Shown piece after piece: positions 1-34,718 of a DNA stretch of 64,000 nt. The translations under genes and the position numbers were made by a program. How positions within the stretch are numbered: position 1 is the first letter of the stretch; each line of letters opens with the position of its first letter. Origin of the DNA: a virus; the IMG/VR virus record IMGVR_UViG_3300045988_126140, positions 64,001 through 128,000 of that record, one strand, 5' to 3'. Below the pieces are notes generated by a model. The model saw nothing but the letters and a program-made list of their open reading frames with translations, was not told the DNA's origin and ran no database searches.

Positions 1-3000
1 CTGTTTTGAAAACTGTTTAATACTTCGTCTATATTACTTACATTTCCTTCTACATCAAATGTGAAACCATATTTAGATAAACTTTCTTGATATGTAGGAA
101 TCTTATTTTTCATATTAGTCATTAAATCCATTTGTTTAGATAGTTGTTCATTCATGAGTTTTAATTTTTCTTCTGTTAATTTAATTGTATCTACTCCATT
201 TGAATTTTCTAGTTTAACATCTATTATATCAATTTTATTTCCTAGTATATCAAATTGATTTTTTAATTTAGTTATGGCGTTGCTAAATTTATACAATTTA
301 TCTTCTCTAGTTAGCTTTTCAATTTCGTCATTATTTTCTTTGATTGTATTTTTCATTTCTTGCCATTGTTCTTCACAACTAAATAAATCACTTTGTTGTA
401 TATCATAATATTTATTAGCTAAATTTGTAAGTTTATCCAATTCTTCTTTATATTTACTAGCTTTATCACTTGCTGTATTATTTGAAGAACTACTAGAAGA
501 GTTACTTTTAGAAGATTTATCAGCTATATCTTGAAGTCGTTTATATTCTTTTTGCATAGCTAATAATTTTTCTTCATAGTTAGTCATATTCCCATCTTCA
601 TTAAATTGGAATCCTTCTTTTTGAAGCTTTTGTTGAAGTGTTTCTCTTTCAGAAATTAAATCGTCATAATATTCCTTTTGAAGTTTTGCTTGTTCTTCTA
701 GTAATTTATTTTTTTGTTTAAGGTATTTAATTTTTTCAGTACCTACTGCTTTTTCCATTTGTTTATCTAATAATGAAGTCTTCTTAGTTACTGTTTCAAT
801 TCTGTATTGCAATTCTTTAAATAGTTCAACAGAGTATTCAATCATATCTAATACATCTTGATATTTAAGACTTATAGGAGTTAAAGCAGTTTCTACATCA
901 CCTATGCTATTAAAATCTCTCGTAGCATATGTACTTATTCCACCAGAACCATCTGAAGTAGGAGTTGCTGTGTTTGCATCATTTGCAGTTACTACAGGTT
1001 GTGGAGTTACCATCGGTGTAGCACTCAACTGCTCTACAGAATAAGGATTATCTTCTATATTAGAAAATTCACCTATAGAATCTCCCCACATTACTGATTT
1101 TCCCTTTCCACTATGAGGAACTTTTGATTTACCTTTTTCTGTATAGGTTAAAGTAGCCATTATTGATATACTTCGTGGTATTTCTTTTATTTGTTGTTTC
1201 AAACTATCTAGTTTGCTTGCTACATCGGCACTATTACTAATTATTTTAATATATTTCTCTGGAATTTTTAATCCTTGAAGTGCATAAAGTTGCTGTAATG
1301 CTTGAAAAGCCATTACGGTAACATCTACAACTTTATTTTTTAATTGTATAGCATCTACAGTTCCAAGTTCATCTAATGCGTTAGATAATGCTACTCCAAC
1401 TTCAATTTGTTTTTCTGCTGGTAATCGCCCTATTAAGTCCATTACGGTTGCTATGTCACCTTGAGCTAAAGCTTTATCTATTTTTACTTTTATGTCTTTT
1501 TCATCTTTTTTATTTAATAGACTATCTATTTCAGCTTTAGCAGTTTTTATTGTATCTTCACCTAAAACATTTATATGACAACTTGTTACTGCTTCTGGAT
1601 GGTTAAATACCCATTGAATCATGTCTTCATAAGATTCTAATTTAGATAAATCTTCAATGTTATTTTTAAAGAATGTTTCAATGTCTTTATCTTTACCTCT
1701 TAAATTATCCATTAATTTGGCATAATTTTCAACTTGGTCAGTATTTTCTATATTCGCTCTTAAAGTTTTTACTATTTCATCTTTTCCGTCAAATTGTTTA
1801 AAACTTGCAAAAGCGTCATCTATTTTCTTTTTATCGTCATCAGATACAGCATATTCTCCTGTAACAAATAATTTACCTACGTCTATTTTACCTTTTCCAA
1901 ATTGTTTATCTACAAGATTTTGAACGTCTTGAATTAAATTATTTCTAGTTTCTTCATCATCTTCTACATAAATTTGAGATAATTTAGCTGTTAATTCCAT
2001 ATCGTCTAAAGAAAATTCATTGTCATCCATCAATCGATTTACCAAGTCTTTTACTTTGTCTGGTAAATTACTATCTTCTAAAGTGGCTTTAACTTCTTTG
2101 ATGTTATAAACCATTTTTCCGTCTTTTTCTACTGTATCAAGACCACTTAAATCTTGAAGAAAATTATTGTAAGCGTCCCATGTTGCCATTAAATCTTTAG
2201 TTTCTTTATCTGTCATGTTTATGTTTTTACCAAAAGAACGTAAATAAGCATCCATAGCATTTTGAGCCATTTTAGCACTTTCTGGCAATTCCACCATACT
2301 TCTAGCTACATCTTCATTTACTCCCCATAATTTAGCTAAAGAAGGGATTAATTTTTCAATTCCTTGTTCGTAAGCAGTAATGTCGCTTGTGTCTGCATAT
2401 GCTTGTTGCAAATCATACAATTTTCTTATTGACTTATCTATTGTTCCAGAATCAAACATTTTCTTCATATTTGATTCAAATAAACTTTGTTGTCCACTTG
2501 TTAATTGAGAAAAATCTAATCCATTTACAACTTCTATCATTTCAGATTGAACGTCACTTTTTAATTTACTAAAACCATCACCTATAGACAAAGAGTTTAC
2601 TATACTTTTATTTATTTTTTGAGATTCGGCACTTATTTTTGCTTCGGCATCTACAACTGCCTCTTTAGCACTAGCGTAAGTATCACTTAATTTAGCAAGC
2701 CTTTCTGAATAATCTTCTAGCCATGCTGAATCACCTGTTTGAGTAAATGTATTGTTAAGTTCACTTTTCTTTTTTCTGATGTTTTCTATTTGTCTATTAT
2801 ATTCCTTAATTGCTTGTTTATTGAAAGCCCCATCTTTACCAGCAAATCCTTGTCCTTCATTCATTTTGTCTGTAGCGTTTCTTTGTTGGTCTTTATATTC
2901 TTGATTCAGAGCCTCTTGTTGTTTCTTGATTAATTTATCATATTTTGCAATTAATTTATCAATATCTCCACCCATCGATAAAATCGGGTTATTATCTTTA

Positions 3001-3014
3001 TCATACAATATCTT
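1..3014 (-). CDS. tail tape measure protein, last exon visible (ORF runs off the window at position 1)
   Basis: I translated the minus strand by hand. It is open from 3014 to position 1 (KILYDKDNNPILSMGGDIDKLIAKYDKLIKKQQEALNQEYK...). It is coiled-coil-like and rich in K/E/Q/L. It is absent from the ORF track, probably because no stop falls inside the window. It follows in frame from the upstream exons once the intron is removed. Confidence 0.7.
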
Positions 3015-3362
3015 CACATAAGGTCGTTAATCTTATGCAGTTCTCTTATGAACTTCTCTAGTTTTCACTAGACGTTGAGACTATATCTTTACCTATTACT
3101 AGGCACATACCGCTTCCACTCACTTAAGTGTACTCTCTTTCGAGATAGTCGTTGAAGTTTAATTATTTTATTAATTATTTAAATTAAATCTTTTAAACAA
3201 TTAATAAAATAATTCTTACCTGCTGATTGCCCAATCCTTAAACTTTTTAAAACCATCACGCTTATCATTGCTAATTACGTTGTGGTATTAAGGCTCTAAG
3301 GGGTTTCCAGCAATTCAATATGTTTTCTAATAATAATTTCTTATTATAGGGGCTATTTATTA
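3015..3362 (-). ncRNA. group I intron, family A, in the tape measure gene (boundaries +/- a few nt)
   Basis: The minus-strand RNA carries all four classical group I core elements. P-like AAUUGCUGGAAA, Q AAUCAGCAGG, R UUCAACGACUA and S AAGAUAUAGUC, with GACUA/UAGUC able to form P7. A GNRA hairpin UCUC-GAAA-GAGA follows R. The 5' exon ends GGGU and can pair with GCCC 10 nt downstream, giving the U-G wobble. The intron ends in G. A stop codon lies just inside the intron, and removal restores the reading frame. Confidence 0.75.
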
Positions 3363-4253
3363 ACCCAAGACAATATCTTCGCCACAAATATCAATTATTT
3401 GTTGTTGTAACTCTTTAAATCTTTCTTGCTGTTCAGAAGTTTTATCTACTGTATCGTATAATTTTTTATATTCGTCTCTAATATTTGAAAGATTTGTTTT
3501 TGCTTTTGTTGAGCTATTTACTTTATTGTTTAAATTGGTTATATTTTCTGCATTTTCTTCTAAAGCATCATTAAGTTTATTAGCCTCGTCTGTAAAATGT
3601 TGAATAACTTTACCTATTCCCCATGATACGAGCATACCTATACCCATATTTACAACGCCCATAGCTAAATTCATAGCTCCTAAAGCTATTTTTGTTCCTA
3701 ATGCTTTAGCCTCTACACCTGCTAAAGCACTTCTAACTGCTGTTAATCCAGAGGCAAATACCCCAGATGATTGACGAGCTTCTTTAAATGAAGTACCTAT
3801 TCCTTTTATTACATTCCAAGATTTTCCAAGATAACTAGCTTGAAATCCTTCTCTTATTGTTGCAAAGAATCCTGGATTAGTAGTTCCAATCATTGTAGCA
3901 CTAGATGCTTGTCGTGTTGCAGTGGCTTGTCCTTCTAATGCAGTAGTTGTACTTAAAGCTTCGGCTTTTAATCTTCTTTCTTGATTAATTAATGCTTCAA
4001 ATCCACCGCTTCGATTAAATTTTAATGATTGAAAAAGACCAGAAATTGCACCTGCTATTACGGGTAATCCTACACCCATGTCATCTATATACTTAACAAA
4101 TTTATCTAACATGTCTAAAGCGCTTATACCAATGTCTAAAAATCCTTTTGCCGTATTTCCACTTACAGCAGTATTGACTATACTTCTCCATTTTTCTTGA
4201 AGTAATGTAAGTTTCCCTTGTACGGAGTCTATATATCTTGCATTCGTTATCTT
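3363..4253 (-). CDS. tail tape measure protein, exon 4
   Basis: This is track ORF 3360..4256 trimmed to the inferred splice sites. Ala/Gly-rich hydrophobic segments are typical of tape measure proteins. Confidence 0.7.
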
Positions 4254-4645
4254 CACATAAATTCGCTACATCTATGCAGTTCTCTTATGAACTTCCTATA
4301 CTTTCATATAGAGTCGAGACTATTTCTTCACCTTCAGCATTATCTGTTAAGGGCAAAGTATTTCCACTATCAATAGCTTATAGTGTACGGTTTCACAACC
4401 TAGTCGTTGAAAGTTTAATCTAATTTATTAATTATTTTTAAATCTTTAAATGATTTTTAACTGTATTAGATTAATACTTGCATGAACACCCATTGTTTAA
4501 GATTACTTAGGATTTAACCATATAATCATCCTTACGTTTTTTCTACTTTCGTACCTTCACGCTTATTGTTGCCAATTACGTTGTGGTGTAAGGCTTTAGG
4601 GATTACCTGCTTTTAACTTTGTGTCCTACGCACATTTCTGTACGT
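4254..4645 (-). ncRNA. group I intron, family A, in the tape measure gene (5' end uncertain, 4641-4650)
   Basis: It shares R (UUCAACGACUA), S-like (GAAGAAAUAGUCUC) and the 3' tail with the 3015..3362 intron. Its 5' half matches the capsid-gene intron (UAGGACACAA..GCAGGUAAU..UAAAGC..UACACCA). The hairpin after R covaries: GGUU-GUGA-AACC. Confidence 0.65.
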
Positions 4646-4769
4646 ACGGAGAATGTTGTTTCTCTTTCATTGAAGAGCCGAAAGTGTCACCATTTTCGTA
4701 CTCTTTCATAAATTTTTCAGCTTGACTCCAGTTACTCATTATTGCTGTGAAAACATTTAACTGGTTTTT
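4646..4769 (-). CDS. tail tape measure protein, micro-exon 3 (about 40 codons, ends approximate)
   Basis: An open stretch, KNQLNVFTAIMSNWSQAEKFMKEYENGDTFGSSMKE..., lies between two intron-like elements. It continues the '...AEAIAG' motif of exon 2 in the manner of tape measure core regions. Confidence 0.5.
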
Positions 4770-5107
4770 CGGTTTATTATCGTAAAGGCTTTTTATCCTC
4801 TACTTCTTATAGTTTCCTATAAGCCTAGCATACATTTTCACCCTCGTTTAACGTTAGGTATTGATGGTTGCAAACCCATCTCAAACATTACTATATAATG
4901 CTGTGGAGGAGGCTCGTGGTAGGATTATTGCTAACAATATCGCTCACCTACTATGCGTTACGGATGTTCTCTGTTAAGACACCCTCGGTATTACCACTAT
5001 CCATACAGGACTTAGGCTCTCTTACCACCTTAATCTTTTGATTTAGTTGACCGATACACCCCTCTAATCTACATGATATTTCTACCATGAGTGGCAAAAA
5101 TAATTTT
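4770..5107 (-). ncRNA. group I-like intron, family B, in the tape measure gene
   Basis: It shares blocks with the introns at 5279..5609 and 25922..27337: GGGG..AUCGGUC, GGUAAGAGAGCCUAAGUC, UAAUACCGAG and the 3' tail GAUAAUAAACCG. The upstream frame meets a stop shortly after the inferred 5' splice site. The core is less clearly canonical than in family A. Confidence 0.55.
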
Positions 5108-5278: not shown

Positions 5279-5609
5279 CGAATTGTTATTATCATGAAGT
5301 TTTTTATCTTCATCTCTGGAAGTTTCCTTCATTTTCATCGATTGGTCATTTCCAATCCAGTCTGGCGTACATATTCCATCTTATATAAGACAGTCGGAGA
5401 CTCTTGGAGGGATTATATTCTAATTTAGGTTCACCCTCTACGCTCTACATTATTAAATAAGTTTTAATTTATTCAATTAACTCGGTATTAACTTATCTTT
5501 ATTAATTATTTTTAAGACTTAGTCTTTCTTACCATATGTATTACTACATATACGACCGATTTTCCCCGAACCGGCAATATTATTTACCGTCTTTAGCACT
5601 TGTTTTCCA
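5279..5609 (-). ncRNA. group I-like intron, family B, in the tape measure gene
   Basis: The 5' exon end GCUGGU can pair with GCCGGU about 30 nt downstream, giving a U-G at the splice site. There is a GNRA hairpin AUAUGUA-GUAA-UACAUAU. The intron ends ...AAUAACAAUUCG. It is collinear with the terminase intron but lacks that intron's ORF. Confidence 0.6.
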
Positions 5610-7616
5610 ACCAGCCATATTTTGCATGATTGTTTTTAAACCATTACCTAATTTACTTGCATTTTGTAACGGTTCTTGACCTGCAATTATAATACCAACT
5701 AACTCTTGCATACTAACGCCTAATGTTTTTGCTACGGAAGCTGAACGCATCATTGCTTCAGATACGTCTTTACCTGTAACAGCATAGTTGTTGTTTGCAT
5801 AGTTGACCATATCCATCATTTGCATCATTTTGGTAGTTTCTTTGGTGTTACCTTTGACTTTCATTGTGACTTTATCTAATGAGTTTGCAACACCACCATA
5901 AGATGCTAATGTTGATTTCAAGTATTTATCTGCATCTGCTTGGCTTGTATCTATAACGTTGGCAAACATAGATGCGTTTTTAGCATATTGTAAAGCTTTG
6001 CTGACATTATGGAAACCAGATTGTAATGCCTCGGCAGTGGAATCAATTATATCAATACTACTTCTGGCAACCTCTTGACCTGCCTCACTTGCTTTTTGAG
6101 TTAACCAATCTAATTGTTTAGCTGTTCCTGTAAAGGTATCTGGTGCAACCTTTAATAATTTTTTAATTGCTGTATCAGTATCAACAATAGTCTTAGGGAT
6201 TGAAGATATAGCTTGAGTAATAACTCTAGCAAACATATTCGGTATTGAATACATTGACAACATAGAGGATAGAGAACTGAAAAATCCCGACGTTTTTCTA
6301 GTTGTATTTCCTAGTATATTCATTGCTTGAGTTGCACTTCTAGCACTATTAGTAACTCCGTTTATACCATTTCCGTTAATATTAGATAAACTACTAGAAA
6401 AAGTACTCACATCTTTAGTTAACGCTTTTAATTCTGCATCTCTATCTTTTAAATTACTCATATTAGCTATCGTTTGCAATCTTTGTCTAAATTCTTCTAT
6501 TTTAGATGACGAAGCTCCTAACTCTTGACATCTTCTTGTTAGGTTCGTTAAATCTTGAGATACTTTATTAAAATCTGCATCAAATTTTACATTAGCTCTT
6601 TTAGTAGAAATTTCACTCTCAAATTGTTTATATTTATTTTCACATTCCGATATTTTATTTTTTAAACCATCAAATTCAGCTTTAGCACCTTCTGTATTAG
6701 GGTCTATATTTCGCAGTTTTGATTGATATTGTTCTATTTGAGTTATTAGCTCTTGTATTCCAGATGTATTAGCAAATTTACTCGTTCCTAATTCAGCAAG
6801 TTTAGCTTTAAGAGATTCTAACTTAGCGACAGATGTATTTACCTTATCAGTGAATGTAATTGAGCCGTTTAATCCTTTTAATGATACTGAAACATTACTA
6901 ATCTCTGCATTTAAATTATGTATTTGTTCATATGCCTTGTCGGATTTTAATATTTGACTTAAATCAGCACCTTTAACATTATTGATTTTATTTTGAAGTT
7001 CTTGGAGTTGCCCCACCTGTGAACTTGTTAAGTTTTTATTTTTGAACATATTGTTAATTTGTTCAGAGGTGTTATTAGCCTTTTGTTGAATTTTATCAAA
7101 TGAACTTATTAAATCTCTACTTATATCTATATTAGATTTATTTTTTAAGTTATCCATTTTTTGTGCAGTAGATTGCATCTCGCTGTTAATTTTTGACAAC
7201 TTAGATTCTAACTCGTTATAAGCTTGAGTATTTATAGTTTTAGACATTTGTTTTTGAAGTGATTCTGATTGTTTTTGTAAAACTTTATATTTAGCTATAG
7301 TATTATCTAATTCTTTATTACCAGTAGAAGTCTTAGTAGAACCACTGCCAAATAAATTTTTCTGTACGTCTTTACTTAAAGAATTTATTTCTTTCAAAGT
7401 ATTCTGTATCTGCTTAAGATTGTTTAATTGGTCGTCTTTAAGTTTAAAAGCATTATTTAATACTTTTTGAAGTTCCTCCATTTGAGATTTCATTTTTGTC
7501 GTATCAAATTTCAGATTAACTTCTTTTTTTTCTAATTTCTCTTTCAATTTTGCAACTTCTTGTTCTGCTCCACTTCCGTCTACAGAAGTTTTTAATCTAA
7601 TAGTTAAATCTGCCAT
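5610..7616 (-). CDS. tail tape measure protein, exon 1
   Basis: This is track ORF 5580..7616 trimmed at the inferred 5' splice site. A long coiled-coil N-terminal part is followed by ...GNGLKTIMQNMAG, which continues into exon 2. Confidence 0.75.
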
Positions 7617-7637
7617 ATATTAATCTCACCTGCCTTT

Positions 7638-8081
7638 CTATATAACATCTAAACCTTGCTCTATTAAATATTGTTTCAATTCAGATGGTATTTGTTGAGC
7701 TATTTTAGCTTGTGAATCTGGTATAATAGTTGTTGGAGGATAATAAGCAACTGTAGAATCGCTTTTAAAACTCCAAACTTTACCTGCTTCCCAACCTATA
7801 ATAGGAAAGAAATGCTCTCCCGTTAATACACTTGTCCAGTCCCCATTATCTTGAAATTCTACTACAGCACAATTCATATCAATGCTTGATATTTGTGCTA
7901 TTTCTCCCATTTGTCCTGTACGTCCATATGCAGATGGTTCATGGTCAGCATATATTTGTTCATTTACTTCTCGTTGCATTATTTCTACCATTTTATTTGC
8001 CATAGGTGTCATAGCCGTAGAAACAACGGATTTAATATAATTGACTGCACTTTCAATATCATTTACAACCAAATTAATCAC
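7638..8081 (-). CDS. hypothetical virion/tail-assembly protein
   Basis: A 147-aa ORF lies immediately upstream of the tape measure gene and overlaps the preceding ORF by 8 nt. Function not recognised. Confidence 0.6.
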   Translation of the reverse strand: MINLVVNDIESAVNYIKSVVSTAMTPMANKMVEIMQREVNEQIYADHEPSAYGRTGQMGEIAQISSIDMNCAVVEFQDNGDWTSVLTGEHFFPIIGWEAGKVWSFKSDSTVAYYPPTTIIPDSQAKIAQQIPSELKQYLIEQGLDVI

Positions 8082-13604: not shown

Positions 13605-13800
13605 TCCATTTCTATATTTTGTAAGAGCAATAATTTGCCCCCATATAATTTGTATACTTTTTTGAACTACTCGCCAATAAATTGGCAAGATTCTTGGTCA
13701 ATATGCCTAACGGCACAAGTTTACCCAAGCTACCGAGGTAGTCCCGACCTCACTGAATACTAAAATTATAGTGCTAATTTTAGTAAGTTTTTACTTGCAT
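13605..13800 (-). ncRNA. putative omega RNA (reRNA) of TnpB
   Basis: The last codons of tnpB plus about 160 nt downstream are unusually GC-rich and full of stems (GGTCGGGACTACCTCGGTAGCTTGGG..., GCCAATTTATTGGC). In characterised TnpB systems the guide RNA is made from exactly this position. Confidence 0.45.
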
Positions 13801-14908
13801 TTATATCTCTATCGTGATGTGTATTACATTTAGGGCAAGTCCATTCTCTTAGTCCTAGATTTTTCACATCACTATTTTTATATCCACATTCAGAACATAA
13901 TTGAGAACTAGCATAGTTTGATGGTGCAATTACTATTTCTCTTCCATACCAATTAGCCTTATATTCTAACATTACTCTAAATTTATACCACGATACTTCT
14001 GATATAGCTCTTGCATTTTTATGATTTTTCACCATATTACCTATTCTTAAATCTTCTATTACTATTACTTGGTTTTCGTTTATTAGCTTTGTAGAGATTT
14101 TTTGTAGATAATCAGTTCTTTGATTTTTAATCTTTTCATGTAATTTCGCAACTTTAATTCTCGTTTTATTCCAATTACTAGAGCCATATTGCTTTCTCGA
14201 TAAATCTCTTTGTAATTTTTTCAATCTCTTAGTTTTATTTCTTAGCCACTTAGGATTTTTGAATTTAACTCCATCTGAACATATTGCAAAATCTTTTAGC
14301 CCAACATCTACTCCAACTTTCTTATTTATTTTAGGAAGCTCATTAATTTCTAGCTCACAAGTTAAAAATATGAAGTATTTCTCTGTGTTAGTTCTTCTTA
14401 TAGTTGCAGTTTTAATTTTACCTTCTACCTCTCTCGACTTAGCAAACCTCACTTTCCCTAGTTTTGGTAGTTGAATATACTTATTTAATACTTTAATATT
14501 TCCATTTACCATTTTTGTCTTGTAAGATTGTATTTCATTTTTCTTAGATTTAAATTTAGGTTTACCCCCTAAATGTTTATAATATCTACTGTATGCATTA
14601 TCTAAGTTTTCTACAGAAGATTGTAAAGCGATACTATCTACTTCTTTAAGAAAAGAATATTGTGATTTTAACTCTTTTACATCCTTAAAAGAGTTATTCT
14701 TGTTAAAAAACTCACCCTTCCAATTATTACAAGGAAGTTGCCCACATTGATACATTTCTTCTACTATATACCACATCTTATCTTTCTCTTGTTGTTTATC
14801 TAAAAAATAGTTAAATACAAATCTAGCACAACCAATAGTCTTATTAATGAGAATTGTCTGTTCTTTATTTGGATAAATTCTGAATTTATATGCTTTCATT
14901 TTTACCAT
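13766..14908 (-). CDS. tnpB: TnpB, RNA-guided RuvC-like nuclease (IS605 OrfB family)
   Basis: Starts [17 protein letters not shown]. RuvC motifs are present: [18 protein letters not shown] and [10 protein letters not shown]. Zinc-finger pairs CSECG...CPKC are present. The start was chosen at the ATG behind GGGGG; the track start at 15004 lies inside the IS end. Confidence 0.85.
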
Positions 14909-15006
14909 AATATCACCCCCTAAAGGAATATGTTTTATAATTAAACATATACTAAAAAAGCCGATTTGTCTCATGTTTAAAGACATGAGTGTTCTTGGTT
15001 GCATAT

Positions 15007-18963: not shown

Positions 18964-19104
18964 TTAGTTTTGTATTTTTATTATAGCGTAAGTAGAAGCT
19001 ACAGCTACACCTAAATGTACCATACGGTTCATTTCCATTTCGATTTGATAATCTTTTCTAGCTCCAGTAGTATCTTCGTTTAATTCTACATCGCCTAATC
19101 TTCG
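18964..19104 (-). CDS. major capsid protein, exon 2 (46 codons)
   Basis: I translated RRLGDVELNEDTTGARKDYQIEMEMNRMVHLGVAVASTYAIIKIQN* by hand. It is in frame with exon 1 after removal of the intron-like element. It is too short to appear in the track. Confidence 0.6.
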   Translation of the reverse strand, partial: RRLGDVELNEDTTGARKDYQIEMEMNRMVHLGVAVASTYAIIKIQN

Positions 19105-19501
19105 CATAAGGTCGTTACTCTTATACCGTTCTCTAAGGAACTGCTCATGCTTTCACATGAGAGGAGACTATTTCTTCACCCTATATTTATAGGGGCAACC
19201 CACTTCCGCCCACTTGGGTGTACGAACTTGCGTTCTAGTCGTTGGAGTTTTTCCTCGTTATATTATAAATTTATTTATAACAGGGGAACTTACCTGCATG
19301 AACAGGGATTGTAATGAATTTAATCATCTAGTGTTTAGGATTTAACCATGCACCATCTCTACGTTTTTTCTACTTTCGTGCCGTTACGTTTTAGTTTTCA
19401 CTATCCGCTTTGGTGTAGAGCTTTACCCATTACCTGCAATTCAAGTTGTGTCCTATACCGATTGCTCGATATACGAGGCGTTAAGCTACGTTTAGCTCGT
19501 T
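19105..19501 (-). ncRNA. group I intron, family A, in the major capsid gene (boundaries +/- about 8 nt)
   Basis: R is CCAACGACUAG. The covarying GNRA hairpin is GAAC-GCAA-GUUC. S-like is GAAGAAAUAGUCUCC. The 3' tail CGACCUUAUGCGAAGAU is nearly identical to that of the 3015..3362 intron. The 5' exon AGGU can pair with GCCU. Track ORF 19348..19638 (+) is an intron shadow. Confidence 0.7.
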
Positions 19502-20374
19502 ACCTTCATATCCTAATTTTACAATTGACTCACCGGCTGGTAGTAAAATCAAGTATTTATCTTCTATATCAAATTTACCTACTTCTTTATCATAATAGTT
19601 TGGTAATGGAACTAATGGAGTACCTTCAAATACTCTAGTGTAACCATAATTTCTTCTATCATCTTTTTCTGCGTCAGATAAGAAAGTAGCATCACTTTTT
19701 ACATGAGCTAATGCTGATTTAGTACCTAATATTTGTACTTCTGCACCTGTATGGTCAGAAACTTTAGCTATCATTTCTCTTAATGTTTCTGCTAAAGCAG
19801 TATCATTAGAGGCTTTGCATAAATTTGGATTTCCAGAAGCATCATAAGCTCCGTATAAAGTTTTAGTTACTAAAGTACATATTTTTTTATCAAAAGATTT
19901 AGAAACTCTTTCTACGAATAATGTCCAATCTATAGCACCTTTTAAGAAATCGAACATTTCTGCATAGATTTTGATACCTAGTCTAAAACCTTTAGTATCA
20001 ACTTTTCTATCAAAAATTCTTTGTCTATGAACAGTTTTGACACCAGTAGCCATTAAACTAACTTTAAATAATTCATCATTTTGTACTAAATATTCTTTTT
20101 TATCACCTAAATCAAATGTTTCAACATCAACTAAATCTCCATAAGATTCCATAGTTATTTCATTATGTGTTACTGTTATTAATTCTTCTAATAACTCAAA
20201 TACAATAGTACCATTTCTATCTAACCATCTTTTATATTTAGATTTCTTTTCTGGTAATGGTTCTACTTTTTCAAATATCATATTTCTGATTATATCAGAT
20301 GCTTCCTTTTTAGAATAATTACATACTCCATTATGTAAATCTACTATCATTTGTCTAACATCGTTATCTATCAT
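19502..20374 (-). CDS. major capsid protein, exon 1
   Basis: This is track ORF 19481..20374 trimmed. It follows the scaffold gene and is about 340 aa after splicing. Capsid assignment rests on position and size. Confidence 0.6.
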
Positions 20375-33518: not shown

Positions 33519-34718
33519 TTATTTATCCAACCATTTTTTTAAAAGATTCCTCATCCTCTTAGAAGGTATATATAAATTAATTTCTTTTTCTTCTCGTATA
33601 CCACTTCTAAATAACCATTGAATTAATTCTGATAATGACCAAATATCTTCATCTATTTTTACACCTTTATCTGTGAAGAAATTGTTAATTGTAGGTTTAT
33701 AGTATCTATTTATTAAATAGGCACAATTAGTTTTATCTTTATATTCATTTGTCGCTCTACTGTTACAAGGTACAAATCCATTCGTGTATCCTTTACCTTT
33801 ACACTGATTTTTATAATCTTCAAAGCAAGTCCACATATTAAATTGACCCTTTCCTTTAATTATGTGTGTAAAGTAATTGACTGTGTTATTTTTTAATTTC
33901 TTCATCAATTCCTTCTTACTAGATTTATCATACCAACTTTTAGATAGTGCAGTAGTTTTGTCTCCTATATCATTTAATTTTCCTTCGTATATATGTATCA
34001 AACTTTTATATTTAGCACCATTAATTTCTTGATATTCACATAAGTTATAGCTGTCATTAATTTTACTTATTGATTTATATTCATATTCAACATTATTTAA
34101 ATCATAGTAATATCTTTGTACTTGACCTTTAAACATATACGTTAATATGTAAACTTCTTTGAATGCTGTAAATATATTAATTGGAAAAGTCCACAGCATT
34201 AATGAATTATTAAAGAAATATACATCTCCATTTTTAATTGGATTTTTCATACTACTAAATTTACCTTCATATGTATCATCTATCCAATGGGCTTTATTTT
34301 CTTCATCTATTTTGATTATTTTTTCATTTATTAATATTTGAATATCTCGTTTACTTATAGGTATTTGTTCGACAACATCACACACTTCATCTAATATAAG
34401 TATATACTCACCTTCTCGTATGTCATTTATCACTTCTTGACTTAACCCTCTAAATAAAGAATGTGTTGAAATTACGTTATAACCTTCTTTTACAAGTTCA
34501 TAGAAGTGATTTGTCTTACTTCCTTTCCCTAGTTTCTCATTCGGCTTTCTGAACTCTCTATTATCACAAGTTTTAATTACTCTATCTATTTCAGATAAAA
34601 ACGGTGTTATATACATAAATCTTTCAAATAGTTCATTATTCATATATTGTATTGCAAACGAAGTCTTACCGTACCCACATGGCGCATCAACTACTGTTAT
34701 TTTACATTGATTTTTCAT
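33519..34718 (-). CDS. P-loop NTPase, SF2 helicase-like
   Basis: Walker A is DAPCGYGKTS and Walker B/DExx is ILILDEVCD. Confidence 0.55.
   Translation of the reverse strand: MKNQCKITVVDAPCGYGKTSFAIQYMNNELFERFMYITPFLSEIDRVIKTCDNREFRKPNEKLGKGSKTNHFYELVKEGYNVISTHSLFRGLSQEVINDIREGEYILILDEVCDVVEQIPISKRDIQILINEKIIKIDEENKAHWIDDTYEGKFSSMKNPIKNGDVYFFNNSLMLWTFPINIFTAFKEVYILTYMFKGQVQRYYYDLNNVEYEYKSISKINDSYNLCEYQEINGAKYKSLIHIYEGKLNDIGDKTTALSKSWYDKSSKKELMKKLKNNTVNYFTHIIKGKGQFNMWTCFEDYKNQCKGKGYTNGFVPCNSRATNEYKDKTNCAYLINRYYKPTINNFFTDKGVKIDEDIWSLSELIQWLFRSGIREEKEINLYIPSKRMRNLLKKWLDK

Follow-up and report, generated by a model that had tools for sequence, protein, structure and literature searches.

The window, by which we mean the whole 64,000-nucleotide stretch of viral DNA analyzed here (positions 64,001 to 128,000 of IMG/VR record IMGVR_UViG_3300045988_126140), contains a capsid gene and a tape measure protein (TMP) gene whose reading frames are broken up by inserts. 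A sequence-only reading had noted that the capsid ORF stops at 19481 and that its C-terminal part follows ~400 nt downstream, which the ORF list confirms, with both parts in the same orientation, and had regarded the intervening sequence as homologous to two TMP inserts. This relationship is borne out by BLASTN of the capsid insert against the window, which matches the TMP segments ~3010-3160 and 4249-4628 at 74-77% identity (E values of 1e-12 to 1e-22). The capsid locus is composed as follows.

19481 to 20374, minus strand: capsid ORF, 297 amino acids, ending ...LGYEGNELNVA and a stop codon (ORF list).
18964 to 19107, minus strand: downstream ORF, 47 amino acids, MRRLGDVELNED...IKIQN and a stop codon, ~400 nt downstream of the capsid ORF, in the same orientation.
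19503 to 20374, minus strand: capsid exon 1, ending ...GGA TAT GAA GG (ORF list and alignment of 17 homologues; Pfam YonB on the homologues).
19094 to 19502, minus strand: predicted group I intron, 409 nt, ORF-less, IA2-like (Rfam RF00028, L001, L131/L152/L154, splice test).
18964 to 19093, minus strand: capsid exon 2, a C completing a GGC glycine codon, then DVELNED...IKIQN and a stop codon (42 codons).

The exon junction of the capsid gene

With the provisionally spliced capsid protein as query we recovered 19 relatives, and 17 of those aligned (324-339 amino acids) span the whole query. In all 17 intron-less homologues GYEG is directly followed by (D/E/S/G)(V/L/I) with no insertion, the glutamate and the glycine being invariant, which sets the joined protein as ...LGYEG|DVELNED.... 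Splicing in silico yields a coding sequence of 1002 nt, or 333 amino acids, equal in length to the intron-less homologue P0002 and aligned to it across the junction without a gap. A database protein that is 96% identical (P0001, 297 amino acids) is truncated exactly as the window capsid ORF is. At the DNA level, the closest intron-less relative (L001, 81% amino acid identity) reads GGATATGAAGGTGACGTACAG at the junction. The window therefore joins GAAGG|...UUAGG|CGAUGUA, with the intron at 19094..19502 and exon 2 starting from C19093. L068, which is intron-less at this site, reads GAAGGTGATGTTG. A second lineage carries the same insertion (L131, L152, L154, L072); here, the intron ends in GAAGATAATG|CGATGTT, with an in-frame TAA just upstream. 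Given an intron-terminal G, the TAA in L131, L152 and L154 implies that only G|C with exon 1 ending in GAAGG holds the frame.

The C-terminal part of the protein had thus been correctly located, but its extent had not: the last 46 codons assigned to 18964-19104 become the third base of a glycine codon plus 42 codons, from C19093. The 3' boundary previously put at 19105 was off by 10 nt, with the homologue junctions, the L131 group and the splice test all placing the intron end at G19094.

We conclude that the major capsid gene (SPbeta YonB-type) is very probably split by a 409-nt, ORF-less, self-splicing phage group I intron of IA2-like type at 19094..19502 on the minus strand. The ligated junction would then be GAAGGCGATGTA, with a G before the 5' splice site and a terminal G in the intron; the ligated mRNA would read GAAGG(C/T)GATGTAGAA, and the protein would contain the peptide LGYEGDVELNEDTTGAR. 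The capsid gene should accordingly be annotated as join(20374..19503, 19093..18964), encoding 333 amino acids, and not as a truncated 297-amino acid protein plus a 47-amino acid ORF. A megablast search of cultured phages with the capsid region gave no match, and the capsid homologues in the cultured-phage collection are all intron-less and at most 39% identical.

Anatomy of the capsid intron

In a 700-nt scan the Rfam model RF00028 (Intron_gpI) aligns over its full length to 19144..19519 with 49.9 bits (E=1.2e-11), 0.1 bit under the gathering cutoff of 50 bits. Scans of the whole window, at the gathering threshold and at E<=1, returned no introns; the matches appear only on short stretches, and the scan filters are laxer with less sequence per scan. 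The capsid intron is aligned to model positions 1-253 and contains the conserved core P3-P8 with P7 and J8/7 (consensus GAAGAUAUAGUC). The Rfam alignment assigns AAUUGCAGG to J3/4-P4 and ACGACUA...UAGUC to P7, and its core further includes GAAGAAAUAGUCU. The individual elements are listed below.

19476 to 19480, minus strand: internal guide sequence CGCCU, able to pair with the ligated exons AGG|CG (P1 and P10; found by script).
19456 to 19471, minus strand: P2 hairpin UAUCGA-GCAA-UCGGUA (Rfam alignment).
19253 to 19286, minus strand: P6 loop region, site of the endonuclease ORF in relatives, with no ORF in the window copy.
19236 to 19244, minus strand: P7 5' strand.
19166 to 19178, minus strand: J8/7 and P7 3' strand, UGAAGAAAUAGUC (Rfam alignment to the core consensus).
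19164 to 19165, minus strand: J7/9 dinucleotide UC, 5' half of a P9.0-type pairing (covariation).
19144 to 19161, minus strand: P9 hairpin (covariation; four of five pairs change on both sides).
19128 to 19142, minus strand: P9.1 hairpin AGUUC-CUUAGA-GAAC, the family signature (pattern frequency).
19104 to 19126, minus strand: P9.2 hairpin GUAUAAG-AGUAACGAC-CUUAUGC (covariation).
19098 to 19114, minus strand: 17-nt motif CGACCTTATGCGAAGAT, comprising the end of L9.2, the P9.2 3' strand, the invariant GAA linker, the P9.0 GA, and U.
19094 to 19103, minus strand: 3' tail GAAGAUUAGG, in which G19100/A19099 pair with C19164/U19165 and G19094 is the omega G.

P9, P9.1 and P9.2 are backed by covariation in 109 sequences. 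In L003 and L031, P2 of the homologous TMP-a type has changed in a compensatory way (ACGUACA/UGUGCGU to ACGUAGA/UCUGCGU). Between the P7 5' strand and P3' there are two extra hairpins, GAACGCAAGUUC and CACCCAAGUGGG, assigned by eye to P7.1/P7.2. From these features we infer an IA2-like subgroup for the capsid intron. The CGCCU guide sequence is unchanged in all seven same-site relatives; its complementarity to the exons amounts to just 5 bp, compared with 7-10 bp in four introns of the TMP gene.

Introns of the tape measure gene

The two TMP inserts related to the capsid intron, here called TMP-a and TMP-b, are accompanied by two further predicted introns in the same gene.

5279 to 5585, minus strand: further TMP intron, junction DG|SISMNK, U before the 5' splice site, terminal G, 10-bp guide match.
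4770 to 5107, minus strand: further TMP intron, junction AG|KNQLNVF, U before the 5' splice site, terminal G, 8-bp guide match.
4245 to 4661, minus strand: TMP-a intron, junction ...SSMKE|NARYIDS... (partial Rfam match, 31.5 bits; guide sequence CAUUCUC matches GAG|AAUG).
3006 to 3362, minus strand: TMP-b intron, junction ...EDIVLG|YDKDNNPIL..., canonical U·G 5' site (Rfam, 76.4 bits; guide sequence AUAGCCC matches GGGU|UAU).

Four homologues (P0022, P0026, P0027 and P0029) are gap-free over GSSMKE|NARYIDS, which sets TMP-a as AAAGAG|...GAAGAUAACG|AAUGCA; its ligated junction would be AAAGAGAATGCA. Same-site copies of TMP-a are found in L003, L031, L137, L138 and L164. For TMP-b, the 81% identical, intron-less P0020/L004 reads EDIVLAYDKNNNPIL and P0022 reads LVLGYDENNDPIL, so that the intron is ...UUGGGU|...GAAGAUAUUG|UAUGAU. 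RF00028 gave no match to the introns at 5279..5585 and 4770..5107, even in an 881-nt scan, and these two look like members of a different group I family that is missed by this model. Removal of all four introns leaves the TMP frame open for 2065 amino acids. In each of the five introns, the capsid intron included, the ligated exons can pair over 5-10 bp with a stretch close to the intron's 5' end (P1 and P10). Gene callers have split both the capsid and the TMP genes, as seen in the truncated database proteins P0001, P0021, P0023 and P0024; the TMP gene should likewise be annotated as joined across its four introns.

Two repeats were seen in the TMP gene. The TMP-b tail with the first base of the following exon (GAAGAUAUUG|U) recurs as an exact 11-nt match in exon 1, starting 18 nt upstream of the 5' splice site (3005..3015 versus 3370..3380, minus strand). 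The exon copy is kept in the intron-less L004, and this variant of the tail is also found in the unrelated introns L026, L039 and L065; the match looks unlikely to be due to chance. We considered such a similarity between tail and exon 1 as a family property and rejected it: beside the 11 nt of TMP-b, it is weak in the capsid intron (AUUAGG) and fails in the L131 group and in TMP-a. The second repeat, AUGAAAGAG, is present twice in a small TMP exon, at FMKE|YENG and SSMKE|NARY (~4710..4720 and 4662..4670, minus strand). TMP-a is inserted at the second copy; the first is empty in the window and is occupied in L143 by a related intron.

The conserved motif and the 3' splice site

All three related copies had been described as ending in nearly the same sequence, CGA(C/A)(C/T)TTATG(T/C)GAAGAT. 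We indeed find the 12-nt core TTATGYGAAGAT exactly three times in the window (3010, 4249 and 19098), always on the minus strand, and the P9.1 pattern has three matches there versus 0.31 expected. A candidate fourth family copy at 34032 (TTATGTGAATAT) proved to be plain coding sequence. The motif does not straddle the exon junction, as had been thought: with the capsid junction assigned as above it is wholly intronic, ending 4 nt inside the capsid intron, and is followed by four further bases and then by the terminal G19094. This omega G, set by the homologue junctions, is the tenth tail base, counted after TTATGY, as it is in TMP-a and TMP-b, and it is the tenth tail base in L068 as well.

The P9.1 hairpin AGTTCNTNAGAGAACNGNATA served as an unbiased probe of IMG/VR and matched at least 120 stretches; 112 distinct 3' ends, from the P9.1 matches listed, were aligned. 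In this alignment TTATG(T/C) forms the 3' strand of P9.2, with 99.9% of the cells paired and none of 500 shuffles reaching the score. Pair 56-78 is CG in 73 sequences, UA in 29 and GU in 5, pair 60-74 is GC in 64, AU in 36, UA in 5 and CG in 2, and the covariation signal vanishes when the partner is slid by 1-3 columns. CGA(C/A) is the conserved end of the L9.2 loop (U-A/G-C-G-A). The tail that follows has the profile G 100%, A 100%, A 97%, N, A 85%, U 57%, A 71%, A 64%, N, G; in 96 of the 112 sequences the first G from tail position 7 on falls at positions 9-11, and the commonest variants are GAATAT (27/112) and GAAGAT (23/112).

Tail position 4 shows Watson-Crick covariation with the base two positions past the P7 3' strand (AUAGUCU-N), the combinations being C-G (39), A-U (37) and G-C (25) among 109-112 members, again with 0/500 shuffles reaching the score. 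The neighboring U of J7/9 has tail A5 as its partner in 91 sequences and a G in 13. In the window capsid copy, C19164/U19165 pair with G19100/A19099. We infer that this pairing between J7/9 and the tail is of the P9.0 type; it lies 5-6 nt from the terminal G and does not adjoin it. P9.0 and the terminal G are determinants of the second transesterification site (PMC11417360), and a P9.0-type pairing together with a short P10 would dock the terminal G in the guanosine site so that the exons can be ligated.

These data bear on the earlier suggestions for the motif. A 3' splice-site helix (P9.0/P10) essentially matches the covariation found for the GA of GAAGAT. An exonic GAAGAT, or a common target for homing or insertion, does not agree with the intron-less alleles, which lack GAAGAT at the 3' side of the junction (L001 for the capsid gene, L004 for TMP). 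Conservation had been placed at the RNA or DNA level because the reading frame differs between the capsid and TMP exons; the covariation supports the RNA level, but the frame argument is moot because the motif is non-coding. All three window copies read GAAGAU because J7/9 is UC in all three, and their likeness would reflect membership in one very large phage-intron family with a common 3' architecture plus this shared dinucleotide. The 3'-end signature of the family (P9.1, P9.2, GAA, the P9.0 pair, about four bases and G) allows 3' splice sites to be placed to the base.

5' splice sites apparently lacking the U·G pair

A U·G wobble pair at the 5' splice site is virtually universal in group I introns (PMC2504315). 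With a terminal G in the capsid intron, however, the last exon base G19503 pairs with C, and U19502·G19479 comes one pair further on, within the intron; a canonical U requires an intron-terminal C, U19502 then being the last exon base with the same protein encoded. In TMP-a the exon ends in AAAGAG and the guide sequence CAUUCUC contains no G, GAG|AAUG pairs over seven contiguous bases, and no alternative yields a U. Related introns behave similarly: in L143 the TMP junction ...LQYQRE|YNAG... has 8 bp and a non-U 5' site, and L118, in another gene (WR|NQ), pairs GAGG|AAU with AUUCCUC over 7 bp, with an extra G-C pair that covaries. The non-U pattern is thus seen at four independent sites (capsid EG|DV; TMP KE|NARY in the window, L003 and L031; TMP RE|YNAG in L143; WR|NQ in L118), at which the ligated exons are complementary to the guide over 5-8 bp (5 in the capsid gene). 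At the three non-capsid sites no one-base shift puts a U last in the exon. A canonical U·G is found in L068, TMP-b and the two further TMP introns. The last exon base was tabulated by hand at five sites; an automated survey of ~110 family members was set aside as error-prone, short guide matches arising by chance.

These comparisons raise the possibility, which we put forward tentatively, that a sub-lineage marked by UAGGACACA at J2/3-P3, including the capsid intron and TMP-a, splices after a G in a G-C pair, without U·G. A search of a limited literature for natural group I introns lacking a 5' U returned nothing specific, which is not proof of novelty. If true, this ribozyme lineage would have relaxed the most conserved 5' splice-site rule and thereby gained a wider set of invadable sites.

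Alternative splicing schemes for the capsid gene

An unlikely alternative shifts both capsid splice sites by one base and leaves the protein unchanged: the 5' site would follow U19502, paired with G19479, the intron would run from 19501 to C19093, and the ligated junction would read GAAGGTGATGTA. P1, formed by AGGU and GCCU, has a U·G pair exactly there, and both intron-less alleles seen carry GGT, the codon that the shift restores, although GGT may merely reflect AT-rich codon use. A terminal C is opposed by the other family members with junctions that can be fixed, all of which end in G at this tail position; moreover, since no shift gives a last-exon U in TMP-a, L143 and L118, non-U 5' sites exist in the lineage anyway.

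Our own pairing analysis turned up another P1, between ACGAGCU (19493..19499) and GCCUCGU, which extends over seven positions with one mismatch, ends in U·G, employs the same guide G and keeps the frame with G19094. Cleavage at CU|C would give the junction GAGCTCGATGTA and the protein ...GYEG-NEL-DVELNED.... We consider this quite improbable: the three-residue insertion is found at the junction of no homologue, the helix is weakened in L131, L152, L154 and L162 (ACAAGCU, an extra A·C mismatch), and AGCU...AGCU forms a small hairpin of its own. In addition, the L068 intron starts with the same UAACG after a canonical GGU|, placing the homologous 5' end in the window at U19502.

The 3' splice site implied by the sequence-only reading, after ...CCTTATG (G19105) with GAAGAT opening exon 2, would produce the junction GGTCGAAGATTAGGCGAT and ...LGYEG-RRLG-DVELNED.... 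This site ends in G and is in frame with a 5' site after GGU, which has the canonical U, and the ORF at 18964..19107 is open through it; yet none of the 17 intron-less homologues contains RRLG, the covarying P9.2 helix has G19105 and C19104 in base pairs, and the intron-less alleles lack GAAGAT at the junction. The L131 group has a base other than G at the equivalent position (CTTATAC), and its in-frame TAA lies upstream of TGC GAT. Transferred to the TMP copies, such a site either breaks the frame or introduces residues not found in homologues. We thus regard it as very improbable.

That the capsid protein simply ends at ...GNELNVA, in a decayed gene of a defective prophage whose 47-amino acid ORF is separate or unused, is scarcely credible given that exon 2 resembles the homologues at the protein level through to the C terminus, that the interrupted arrangement is kept in two lineages ~81% apart with the ribozyme core intact, and that removal of four introns restores a 2065-amino acid frame in TMP.

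Distribution, age and mobility of the intron family

A group I intron spliced at 19094..19502, our preferred reading, has many relatives. The same 3' architecture is present in the at least 120 viral-contig stretches retrieved from IMG/VR with the P9.1 pattern and in cultured phages, to whose introns the 3' domain (window intron ~250-409) is 70-80% identical. The cultured carriers include Lactococcus phage r1t, Enterococcus, Bacillus, Staphylococcus and Streptococcus phages, C. botulinum phages c-st and D-1873 and Pseudomonas KIL phages; the introns of c-st and D-1873 are annotated "Group I catalytic intron".

Three copies in two genes of one genome had been taken to imply recent intragenomic spread, which our comparisons do not support. 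The window copies are 73-77% identical over segments of 78-208 nt and are not each other's closest relatives: for the 3' domain they rank 12th to 78th of 108 against one another among the matches listed, and 11-77 sequences from unrelated viral contigs are closer. Other contigs hold same-site orthologues of each copy at 85-99% identity, and further same-site orthologues belong to phages with host proteins diverged to 54-81% identity (capsid 81% in the L131 group, TMP 54% in L003/P0024, plus L031). Same-site orthologues across diverged phages point to long residence at each site and argue against recent spread in this genome.

The capsid intron of the window contains no homing endonuclease gene or other ORF. 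The same-site intron of L002 diverges in the P6 loop, after CCCCTGTTATAA, into a LAGLIDADG-like ORF (1298..1489; Pfam E=5e-4, a truncated 64-amino acid piece), and that of L131 holds in the P6 loop a 308-amino acid ORF with repeated zinc fingers and a RAP-like C terminus (749..1675), unrelated to the L002 ORF. Endonuclease-like P6-loop ORFs in same-site relatives suggest that the element spreads by homing between related phages, and it appears to be, or to have been, mobile; the window copy may be a derivative that lost its endonuclease gene. L068 (IMGVR_UViG_3300045988_125645) has a 96% identical core (window intron 28-235) inserted ~30 nt upstream in the capsid gene (...IVPV|GESLVK...), with a different guide sequence/P1 and a different 3' domain. 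By this comparison, it is a probable example of site switching through exchange of peripheral parts.

Comparison with known phage introns

IA2 introns with a site-adapted P1 have been described in TMP genes of Bacillus cereus group prophages as TMP-IVS1/IVS2 (Tourasse and Kolsto 2008, PMC2504315). As in that system, several related introns reside in one phage structural gene, with conserved cores, site-adapted P1 and periphery, and with or without an ORF. The window introns differ in that they belong to a clostridial SPbeta/YonB-type phage, the capsid gene is among the sites, two copies appear to be without the U·G pair, and divergence is greater, with the window copies 73-77% identical compared with 80% overall and 90-92% in the core for the B. 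cereus introns.

Introns in phage capsid and tail genes are also known from Lactococcus phage Tuc2009 and from the mycobacteriophages LittleE and BAKA, for which splicing was demonstrated (PMC3706429). The window resembles Tuc2009 and LittleE in having an intron in the most highly expressed virion gene and in that some copies carry an endonuclease gene. In LittleE, RT-PCR and N-terminal sequencing showed splicing with a U before the 5' site and a G at the intron end (PMC3706429), whereas splicing of the window introns is predicted from sequence.

The intron of Lactococcus phage r1t (ORF40-ORF42) and its relatives share with the window family the same P9.1 AGUUCAUAAGAGAAC, a P9.2 and a GAAUAUAAACG-type tail, but their host genes (tail, ribonucleotide reductase and others) and 5' halves differ, and none of those from cultured phages lies in a YonB-type capsid gene. 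The T4 td intron likewise has a short pairing of the P7-P9 junction with the 3' tail and a linker between P9.2 and P9.0 (PMC11417360). In td, however, P9.0 must be near the terminal G (PMC11417360), whereas the window pair is four A/U-rich bases away.

The finding is thus mostly ordinary, a well-documented example of an established kind of phage intron, and the intron-bearing phage structural genes now include a capsid gene of YonB type from a clostridial SPbeta-like phage. The sole feature of wider interest is the apparent lack of the U·G pair in two introns.

Transposon-related genes were noted as well. An IS605-type OrfB/TnpB gene lies among the structural genes of the window (13766..15004, minus strand), and the 81%-related L001 has one in a similar position (6553..7695), with the Pfam domains HTH_OrfB_IS605, OrfB_IS605 and Cas12f1-like_TNB. 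In Clostridium phage D-1873 (L169, ACSJ01000013.1, 4291..6091), a gene for an IS605-family transposase follows ~350 nt downstream of an annotated group I intron whose 3' domain is related, and a small opposite-strand ORF separates the two, an IStron-like layout.
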